The translations under genes and the position numbers were made by a program. From the NCBI RefSeq assembly GCF_003334355.1, contig NZ_QOWP01000074.1: a stretch of DNA of 2,519 nt, one strand, 5' to 3'. Shown here one piece after another: positions 102 through 1,227 of the stretch. This DNA is from Escherichia coli. GTDB lineage: Bacteria; Pseudomonadota; Gammaproteobacteria; Enterobacterales; Enterobacteriaceae. Under the pieces are notes generated by a model. It had not been told where the DNA came from, did no database searches, and saw nothing but the letters and a program-made list of their open reading frames with translations. How positions within the stretch are numbered: the first letter of the stretch is position 1; every line of letters begins with the position of its first letter.

Positions 102-149
102 AGACCGCCGTTGATTTTGACCTTCTGGCAGCTTGCTGCCCGAACGATT

Positions 150-192
150 TTGCGTAGCAAAGTCTAGTGAGTACACTATCATCCTGATAGTG
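150..192 (+). promoter_or_regulatory. Candidate mob promoter overlapping a perfect hairpin (CACTATCA-TCC-TGATAGTG, 174-192); candidate oriT/nic region and Mob autoregulation site.
   Basis: The -35-like TTGCGT (150-155) and -10-like TACACT (172-177) are 16 nt apart. The 8-bp perfect inverted repeat with a 3-nt loop lies about 70 bp upstream of the mob start. In MOBV plasmids (pMV158, pBBR1) oriT lies just upstream of mob and overlaps its promoter. No nic site is identified. Confidence 0.3.
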
Positions 193-258
193 GCCCGCCG
201 GAGGTATCGCAATGCGCTCCCCCGCCTGGCTGAATGAATGCCGGAATCAGGGGGGAAC

Positions 259-1227
259 ATGGCGAACTACGCGATAATGCGCTGCAAAAAGCTGACGGGA
301 ATGGGAAGCGTGGCCAGCGCGTTGCAGCACTGCTACCGAGAGCGTGAGACGCCGAACGCTAACGCTGAACGGACACCAGAAAACTACTGCTCTGTGTCCA
401 AATCAACGGATCAGGCAATGGGGCGTGTGCGGGAGCTGCTGCCGGAAAAACGCCGTAAAGATGCGGTACTGGCCGTTGAATACGTTATGACAGCAAGCCC
501 TGAGTGGTGGAAAGAGGCCACACCACGGCAGCAGGCGGAGTTTTTCGCCCGCTCTGAGCAATGGCTGGAGAAGAAATACGGGAAGGATCGTGTTGTGGCG
601 GCGGTGGTTCACCGGGACGAGGCCACCCCGCACCTGTCTGCGTTCGTGGTGCCATTGACGCAGGATGGACGGCTGTCCGCGAAAGAGTTTATTGGCGGGC
701 GGTCAAAGATGCGTGAAGATCAGAGCACCTACGCTGAATCAGTAAAAAAACTGGGTCTTGAGCGCGGCATCGAGGGAAGCCGCGCCACGCATCAGACAGT
801 TCAGCACTACTACGAATCGATAAACCGTGGCACCCGTAGCCAGGTATCGATCTCGCCGGAGGCGCTGGAGCCGCGTGTATTGCGGAAGGGCATTTTCACC
901 AAAGACGTGGAAGATCAGGCAGCCATAGCCAAACGTCTAAGCCACGCAGTGAACGATGGCTTTGCAGGAACCATCGCTATGGCCTCTCAGAGCGCCCAGA
1001 ACGCAAAAAGAGCGCGTGAGCTACAGAAGACTATGGATGCGCAGCAGAAACGCCTACAGAGCGTCACAGAGCCTTTTAAGGGGCTTTCCAGAGAGCAGAT
1101 GACCGAAATCCTGATGATGGCTCAGCGGTTTAAGCAGCAAAACCAGGAAAAGGAAAAACAGCAGCGTATTGAACGTGAAAAACAGCGACAGACGCGATCG
1201 CGTGGCATGGGTGGTATGGAGCGTTAG
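259..1227 (+). CDS. mob: Plasmid mobilisation relaxase, Mob/Pre (MOBV) family, 322 aa from ATG 259. The ORF track's upstream in-frame ATG at 238 would add 7 residues (MPESGGN) and is less likely.
   Basis: N-terminus MANYAIMRCKK...SALQHCYRERE has the same layout as pMV158 MobM (MSYMVARMQK...FKHNER), including the HxxR motif with the conserved His. It also carries RKDAVLAVEYVMT and VVHRDEATPHLSAFVVP (HxDExxPH metal-binding motif), then GLERG and HQTV, all matching MobM from memory. A G-rich Shine-Dalgarno (AGGGGGG, 249-255) lies 3 nt before ATG 259. The long uninterrupted ORF is GC-rich and ends with a Q/E/K/R-rich C-terminal tail. Confidence 0.9.
   Translation: MANYAIMRCKKLTGMGSVASALQHCYRERETPNANAERTPENYCSVSKSTDQAMGRVRELLPEKRRKDAVLAVEYVMTASPEWWKEATPRQQAEFFARSEQWLEKKYGKDRVVAAVVHRDEATPHLSAFVVPLTQDGRLSAKEFIGGRSKMREDQSTYAESVKKLGLERGIEGSRATHQTVQHYYESINRGTRSQVSISPEALEPRVLRKGIFTKDVEDQAAIAKRLSHAVNDGFAGTIAMASQSAQNAKRARELQKTMDAQQKRLQSVTEPFKGLSREQMTEILMMAQRFKQQNQEKEKQQRIEREKQRQTRSRGMGGMER

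Follow-up and report, generated by a model that had tools for sequence, protein, structure and literature searches.

A probable pBBR1-type origin of transfer overlapping a candidate mob promoter of a small enterobacterial plasmid

Results

The window, by which we mean the whole 2,519-nt stretch of DNA that we analysed, is a complete circular plasmid of 2,442 bp with a 77-bp overlap, positions 1-77 being identical to positions 2443-2519. On the plus strand it carries mob (259-1227), which encodes a MobV (Mob_Pre) relaxase of 322 amino acids and was assigned by NCBIfam, by Pfam and by a match of structure, and on the minus strand a rep open reading frame (1514-2017), upstream of which lie about 4.5 tandem copies of a 22-bp iteron (TGAGTACGATTAGTACTTGAGG; 2071-2170). 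PLSDB contains about 30 plasmids of 2.44 kb that are nearly identical to it, from hosts that include E. coli, Klebsiella, Salmonella, Shigella and Enterobacter; many of them are typed there as 'non-mobilizable'. Two further structures are apparent outside these genes. At 59-101 there is a long GC-rich stem-loop with a GCGAAGC tip (-13.9 kcal/mol, z = -3.0 for the single-stranded DNA fold), and GC stem-loops resembling it come after a CCCTTGAC motif in three relatives (L002-L004) and in pBBR1, with no homology at the level of BLAST. At 1256-1280, 29 nt past the mob stop codon and between convergent open reading frames, lies a palindrome (GCCGCAAAGTGACGTCATTTGCGGC; z = -3.6 for the single-stranded DNA fold), a possible terminator or binding site, which falls outside the cassette shared with relative L001, whose end corresponds to position 1238.

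The conserved start of mob is the ATG at 259, where the Pfam Mob_Pre match (5e-45) begins at model position 1 and upstream of which there is a G-rich run resembling a Shine-Dalgarno sequence. We note that an in-frame ATG at 238 would lengthen the open reading frame by 7 codons, and that other upstream starts are annotated in some relatives (for example L001). The protein scores 162 bits against NCBIfam NF041497 (cut-off 100) and matches the crystal structure of the MobM relaxase domain (4LVI; E = 2e-15), and in the alignment with this structure the motif HRDEATPH of the window Mob stands opposite HLDESTPH of MobM, with His24 opposite MobM His22. His22 is reportedly the nucleophile of MobM. As read from the sequence, mob is an intact gene, with catalytic residues that align with those of MobM.

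Alignment with the oriT of pBBR1, which the earlier note on this DNA had proposed, revealed clear homology. A 176-nt query representing the junction of oriT and mob in pBBR1 gave a 100% match to NC_025015.1 (Bordetella bronchiseptica pBBR1, 2,687 bp), and BLAST similarity between this plasmid and the window is confined to window positions 144-696 (71.5% identity), that is, to the module described below and the relaxase domain. The two Mob proteins are 67% identical over their first 190 amino acids and 50% identical overall. There is no significant similarity between the window Rep and pBBR1 Rep, which rules out the plasmid as a whole as a pBBR1 relative. In nine relatives on unrelated backbones the homology with the window begins at 139-149, and the cassette common to pBBR1 and eight other relatives spans only about 140 to 700-1238. 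The dissimilarity of the Rep proteins, together with the point at which homology begins, indicates that the mob/oriT cassette starts at the module and moves between replicons. We also note that several PLSDB records with this cassette (H5, H6, L002, L003 and L117), that of pBBR1 itself included, are typed 'non-mobilizable' or lack mob in their gene table, so that database mobility calls for such plasmids are unreliable. Remnants of the cassette occur as well: one relative (L017, near 3096) has a decayed copy in which the core is one T longer (TAGTGAGTTACAC) and mob is truncated, an Actinobacillus floR plasmid (L014, 1517) keeps the oriT without an intact mob, and another (L008, near 1490) retains the 5' part of mob but no oriT.

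The module itself is made up of five elements on the plus strand upstream of mob. The leftmost is a predicted GC-rich hairpin (GGCAGC-TT-GCTGCC, 127-140) that ends 5 nt upstream of the next element. Most of 65 distinct upstream variants have a hairpin, with an unrelated stem, 3-6 nt ahead of the CGAAC/TCAC spacer that leads up to the left repeat, and the mean best stem across these variants is 5.5 bp, as against 3.8 +/- 0.12 bp when they are shuffled; in a few relatives, L001 among them, the hairpin is missing or weak. It may be an accessory part of the oriT module, or it may mark the module's edge.

The second element is the left inverted repeat (IR1-like; GATTTTGC-GTA-GCAAAGTC, 146-164). An 8-bp repeat with a 3-bp spacer is typical of MOBV origins (PMC3632715), and the repeat at 146-164 has this form, imperfectly, with seven Watson-Crick pairs and one T.G pair. 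It is perfect (GACTTTGC/GCAAAGTC) in pBBR1 and in two relatives (L002 and L011), and elsewhere its arms are ACTTTAC/GTAAAGT (L003 and L004) or, in Bartonella pBGR1, GACTTTAT/ATAAAGTC; the ACTTTAT/ATAAAGT arms of pBGR1 are the same as those of IR1 of pMV158. A G-N-A triloop is found in 21 of 32 distinct variants of the left repeat, and G-N-A loops are frequent in the upstream GC-rich hairpin too. Such loops, when closed by a C:G pair, are said to form unusually stable DNA mini-hairpins, as in d(GCGAAGC).

Next comes the nick-region core (TAGTGAGTACACT, 165-177), which sits 82 nt before the mob ATG at 259, on the same strand. The core, as AAAGTCTAGTGAGTACAC, is invariant or nearly so in all pBBR1-type relatives, and related versions occur in more distant MOBV2 plasmids. 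The only exact occurrence of TAGTGNGT in the window is the one in the nick core, and a search of the window for a second oriT-like site gave nothing beyond one-mismatch matches at the level expected by chance. An 8-mer of the core, GTGAGTAC, recurs on the same strand in four of the iteron copies, in this backbone only (the window and L015), with a post-hoc chance of about 0.006. We regard this as a probable coincidence, but in pMV158 MobM has been reported to bind near the promoter that controls replication (PMC6540685).

The two remaining elements are the nic-distal hairpin (CACTATCA-TCC-TGATAGTG, 174-192), which has a perfect 8-bp stem and a 3-nt loop, and, directly 3' of it, a conserved block (GGCCCGCCGGAGG, 192-204). 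This block is retained in the window, in L001-L004 and L009-L018 and in pBBR1, among sequences that were anchored on the core only, and in pBBR1-type relatives it is as conserved as the nick core. It contains GGAGG, followed 7 nt on by an ATG (212) in the window and by a TTG in pBBR1 and L002; the frame of this codon relative to mob is not conserved.

We assembled two sets of related sequences, one by aligning the regions upstream of mob from relatives in a plasmid collection, with Mob identities from 95% down to about 40%, and the other by scanning metagenome contigs with a pattern in which the core and the GGCCCNCCGGAG block were fixed and 12-32 bases between them were free. The scan returned 98 stretches, mainly on contigs of 2-4 kb. 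Together, the plasmid loci and the metagenome stretches gave 84 distinct oriT segments, containing 43 distinct versions of the hairpin segment. We note that six of the metagenome contigs (L019, L041, L063, L067, L070 and L096) carry two or three copies of the module about 2.0-2.8 kb apart and look like concatemeric assemblies of small circular plasmids.

Covariation was scored in an ungapped alignment of 53 distinct sequences, with the loops trimmed. For the two helices, that is, the left repeat and the hairpin at 174-192, 94.2% of cells are paired, compared with 83.0 +/- 0.7% in shuffled alignments (none of 500 reached the observed value) and 31-48% when the partners are slid out of register, and the covariation score is 0.332, compared with 0.115 in shuffled alignments (again reached by none of 500) and at most 0.068 in the slid controls. 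The 53 rows were selected by pattern, are related to one another and represent one subfamily, a limitation that is addressed by the slid control and by how many independent stem types occur. The covariation supports both helices. In the left repeat, pair 7 has a compensatory change from G:C to A:T (GC in 36 rows, AU in 14), and pair 3 is T.G in 22 of the 53 rows; because a T.G pair at this position is tolerated only on the plus strand, the pattern fits a left-repeat hairpin formed on the predicted nicked (plus) strand. In the distal helix, double changes are seen at five of seven pairs, with pair 6 appearing as UA (19), CG (15), GC (11) and AU (7), and G.T pairs are nearly absent, occupying two cells of the alignment.

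The perfect hairpin that the earlier note had singled out at 174-192, about 70 bp upstream of the relaxase start, is thus real (its end lies 67 nt from the ATG at 259), and it is maintained by pairing among its relatives. In 41 of the 43 distinct versions of the segment the base corresponding to C174 opens a stem of 5 bp or more, as it does in one more version after a 2-nt insertion. Although the search pattern left the start of the hairpin free, the stem still begins at a fixed base, two bases past the predicted nick, in 42 of the 43 variants. The mean stem across the 43 versions is 6.4 bp, compared with 3.3 +/- 0.24 bp when the right arms are swapped between versions (maximum 4.26 in 5,000 trials). 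The outer CACT/AGTG positions are conserved in the 53 rows, and the inner three or four pairs may be of any complementary sequence, with a loop of 2 to 9 nt; the stem changes from nearly every lineage to the next, the versions found including CACTTC/GAAGTG, CTCTTTG/CAAAGAG, CACCAT/ATGGTG, CACTCAA/TTGAGTG and CACTTG/CAAGTG. Relaxase domains that are at least 98% identical are encoded beside unlike inner stems, for example CACTTG/CAAGTG and CACTATCA/TGATAGTG, which argues that the constraint on 174-192 is one of pairing and not of sequence. These comparisons show that selection acts on the pairing of the hairpin and not on its sequence. Perfect hairpins of this size are also rare (three in the 2,442-bp plasmid, with 0.19 expected from mononucleotide shuffles), and the 19-mer folds as single-stranded DNA with -5.1 kcal/mol (z = -5.8), a value matched by one of 200 shuffles, but the conservation is far stronger evidence than either rarity or fold energy. 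A scan of Rfam gave no family match. A different hairpin, in which TAGTG (165-169) would pair with CACTA (174-178) and place the nick in its loop, folds in isolation and was rejected as the selected structure: it is lost in the CTC...GAG variants, in which the distal hairpin alone is compensated.

The position of the nick can be predicted by reference to pMV158. The minimal oriT of that plasmid consists of IR1 plus 8 nt, ACTTTATGAATATAAAGTATAGTGTG/, and is cut behind its last G (PMC3105389). In the window the corresponding sequence is ATTTTGCGTAGCAAAGTCTAGTGAG/T, that is, an arm ending in AAAGT, 8 nt of which six are identical to those of pMV158, and then G/T, and this shared layout leads to a predicted nick between G171 and T172 on the plus strand. 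The earlier note had considered that the nic site could not be placed from the sequence; homology gives it this predicted place. Raw similarity to pMV158 was dropped as evidence, since the best local alignment of the pMV158 42-mer with the window scores 26.5, compared with 26.0 +/- 2.6 for shuffled sequences, and is not above chance. The argument for the nick draws instead on layout, on position, on intermediates such as pBGR1 and on the homology of the relaxases. The description of TAGTGAGTACAC as only loosely similar to the pMV158 nick context agrees with this chance-level score, although in the pBBR1-type module the same string forms the invariant core. Repeats of the pMV158 IR2/IR3 type were not found in the window: an IR2-like pairing, AGTCTA/TACACT, is interrupted by a mismatch that is conserved, and is weaker still in the CTC variants. 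We are aware that the nick of pBBR1 has reportedly been aligned with those of pMV158 and Tn4555.

A promoter and terminator scan called no sigma-70-like site within positions 100-260 of the window. In 250 bp of pBBR1 one such site was called, TTGCGA-16-TATACT, which lies over the repeat and core, with its -35 hexamer within the left repeat and its -10 hexamer starting with the T that immediately follows the predicted nick. The corresponding sequence in the window is a candidate mob promoter at 150-177, with TTGCGT (150-155) as the -35 hexamer, a 16-nt spacer and TACACT (172-177) as the -10 hexamer; these hexamers match at 7 of 12 positions, which is below the call of the scan. The best hexamer pair falls at this position in 58 of the 84 variants. 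The earlier note had favoured a -10 element overlapping the hairpin, and TATCAT (177-182), a five-of-six match to TATAAT, is indeed present there, but it is the best candidate in 9 of the 84 variants and is not conserved. The overlap that the note had proposed between promoter and oriT is in line with the site in pBBR1, although the conserved -10 candidate is TACACT. We therefore treat TTGCGT/TACACT as the best conserved promoter candidate and TATCAT as not conserved. With a -10 hexamer at 172-177, transcription would start near 183-186, inside the hairpin at 174-192.

Discussion

We have found a module upstream of a MobV relaxase gene that, judging from homology and covariation, is very probably a pBBR1-type (MOBV2) oriT of about 127-204 overlapping the candidate mob promoter. 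The suggestion in the earlier note of an oriT just upstream of a MOBV mob gene gains support, at the level of sequence, from the homology with pBBR1 and from the layout resembling that of pMV158. The hairpin at 174-192, on which that suggestion was centred, belongs to the module, but we expect the relaxase to recognise the repeat at 146-164, whose first bases precede the 150-258 interval proposed there. pBBR1 is the prototype of MOBV2, with its oriT upstream of mob (PMC3632715). The module in the window is most probably an ordinary pBBR1-type oriT and a new member of that group, and is mildly new in one respect only, the selection of its distal hairpin for structure alone. Mob of pBBR1 is said to bind a 52-bp fragment that contains both the oriT and the autoregulated mob promoter.

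By homology, Mob would recognise the plus-strand hairpin at 146-164 plus the next 7-8 nt, would cleave between G171 and T172 (CTAGTGAG/T) and would stay attached to the 5' end, and the secretion system of a helper conjugative plasmid would then transfer the strand 5' to 3', T172 first. The hairpin at 174-192 may act at the level of DNA. If both repeats were extruded, exactly 9 nt (TAGTGAG/TA) would be single-stranded between the two stems, offering the nick site to an enzyme that requires single-stranded DNA. The same hairpin would cover the region in which transcription from the candidate promoter is predicted to start, and Mob bound at oriT might occlude the promoter and repress mob, as in pMV158; Mob autorepression reportedly occurs in pBBR1 also. 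It is possible, though we hold it to be rather doubtful, that pBBR1-type origins in general have their nick site in a fixed 9-nt single-stranded linker between the recognition repeat and a structure-only distal hairpin, with a third, GC-rich hairpin upstream, unlike the nick-in-loop arrangement of pMV158, and that extrusion would physically couple nicking to mob transcription, since the linker and the distal hairpin coincide with the -10 hexamer and the start region of the mob promoter.

Other explanations for the hairpin at 174-192 deserve consideration. Placed as it is between the promoter region and the start codon of mob, it could work as RNA, namely by influencing the stability or translation of the mob mRNA as a stem-loop at its 5' end, and not as a DNA element of oriT; covariation demonstrates pairing and by itself does not separate DNA from RNA. 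We nevertheless consider an RNA role unlikely. A transcription start near 183-186 would fall within the hairpin, which argues against such a role, and G.U pairs, which RNA stems usually tolerate, are restricted to the two cells mentioned above. The lack of an Rfam match also counts against it, and the position of the stem, which starts two bases past the predicted nick in 42 of the 43 variants, suggests that hairpin and nick site are connected. It is likewise improbable, and to our minds a little more so, that 174-192 is a sequence-specific operator of double-stranded DNA, bound by a dimeric repressor (Mob or a host protein) and not extruded. Full-length MobM is dimeric and represses its own promoter at oriT, and the outer CACT/AGTG positions are conserved, but the inner three or four pairs are free, relaxase domains at least 98% identical occur beside different inner stems, and the loop varies from 2 to 9 nt, whereas a half-site operator would be intolerant of variable spacing.

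A further alternative is that the nick lies elsewhere, for example in the stem-loop at 59-101 or in the palindrome at 1256-1280, both of which the earlier note had named as possible nic sites, with 146-192 serving merely as promoter or operator. Each of them folds stably as single-stranded DNA (z = -3.0 and -3.6, respectively). However, both are without the core motif and both are outside the cassette common to pBBR1 and eight other relatives, and in the papers that we consulted the origins of MOBV plasmids are placed upstream of mob (PMC3632715, PMC3832669, PMC3606827). We think it very improbable that the nick is at either place, and favour a pBBR1-type oriT at about 127-204 with its predicted nick at G171/T172.

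This annotation resolves the oriT of a small plasmid that is very common among enterobacteria into precise, testable parts, namely a recognition repeat, a predicted nick and a candidate promoter overlap. Many unrelated replicons carry this pBBR1-type mob/oriT cassette, a fact to be considered when the number of mobilisable small plasmids is estimated. The 43 natural variants, moreover, point to a DNA-structural role for the hairpin 3' of the predicted nick, of which we found no experimental definition in the literature that we examined.

The nearest known systems share some features with this module and differ in others. In pMV158, as in the window, the oriT is on the coding strand, upstream of a Mob_Pre gene, and is overlapped by a promoter, a candidate one in the window, and in both a hairpin with AAAGT at its end precedes 8 nt (ATAGTGTG in pMV158, CTAGTGAG in the window) and a G/T nick, predicted in the case of the window. 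MobM of pMV158 represses its own promoter through binding to oriT (PMC6540685), and full-length MobM is a dimer. In pMV158, however, three repeats overlap and the nick falls within a hairpin loop, whereas the predicted nick in the window is in a 9-nt linker between two hairpins, and pMV158 replicates by rolling circle, whereas the plasmid in the window has iterons. The predicted MOBV2 origins of Paracoccus and Halomonas plasmids carry the same core (PMC3832669, PMC3606827). Paracoccus pMOS2 and pMARC4, Halomonas pZM3H1 and Psychrobacter plasmids, as well as relative L006, share the core (GTCTAGTaAGTgcAC; CATAGTGAGTTACG) upstream of mobA, but the Paracoccus, Halomonas and Psychrobacter origins have other flanking repeats and are without the GGCCCGCCGGAGG block. 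In pZM3H1, L005 and pAES1 the core lies in the loop of a single repeat; in Paracoccus pAES1 (L007, about 555-580) mob and the core (GTAGTGAGTAT, within the loop of a GTTTGT/ACAAAC repeat) are on opposite strands.

Upstream of mob, pBBR1 has, in order, CCGCC-GTA-GGCGG, TCAC, GACTTTGC-GAA-GCAAAGTC, TAGTGAGTATACT, ACTCAA-GCA-TTGAGT and GGCCCGCCGGAGG. The window shares with it the succession of a GC hairpin, an 8-bp repeat with a 3-nt spacer, the core TAGTGAGTAyACT, a short hairpin and GGCCCGCCGGAGG, together with a promoter-like site over the repeat and core, and over the left repeat and core 29 of 32 nt are identical. The differences are that the left repeat has a T.G pair in the window where pBBR1 has C:G, that the distal stem is longer in the window (CACTATCA/TGATAGTG, compared with ACTCAA/TTGAGT), that the -10 candidate is TACACT in the window and TATACT in pBBR1, and that the two plasmids differ in their replicon.
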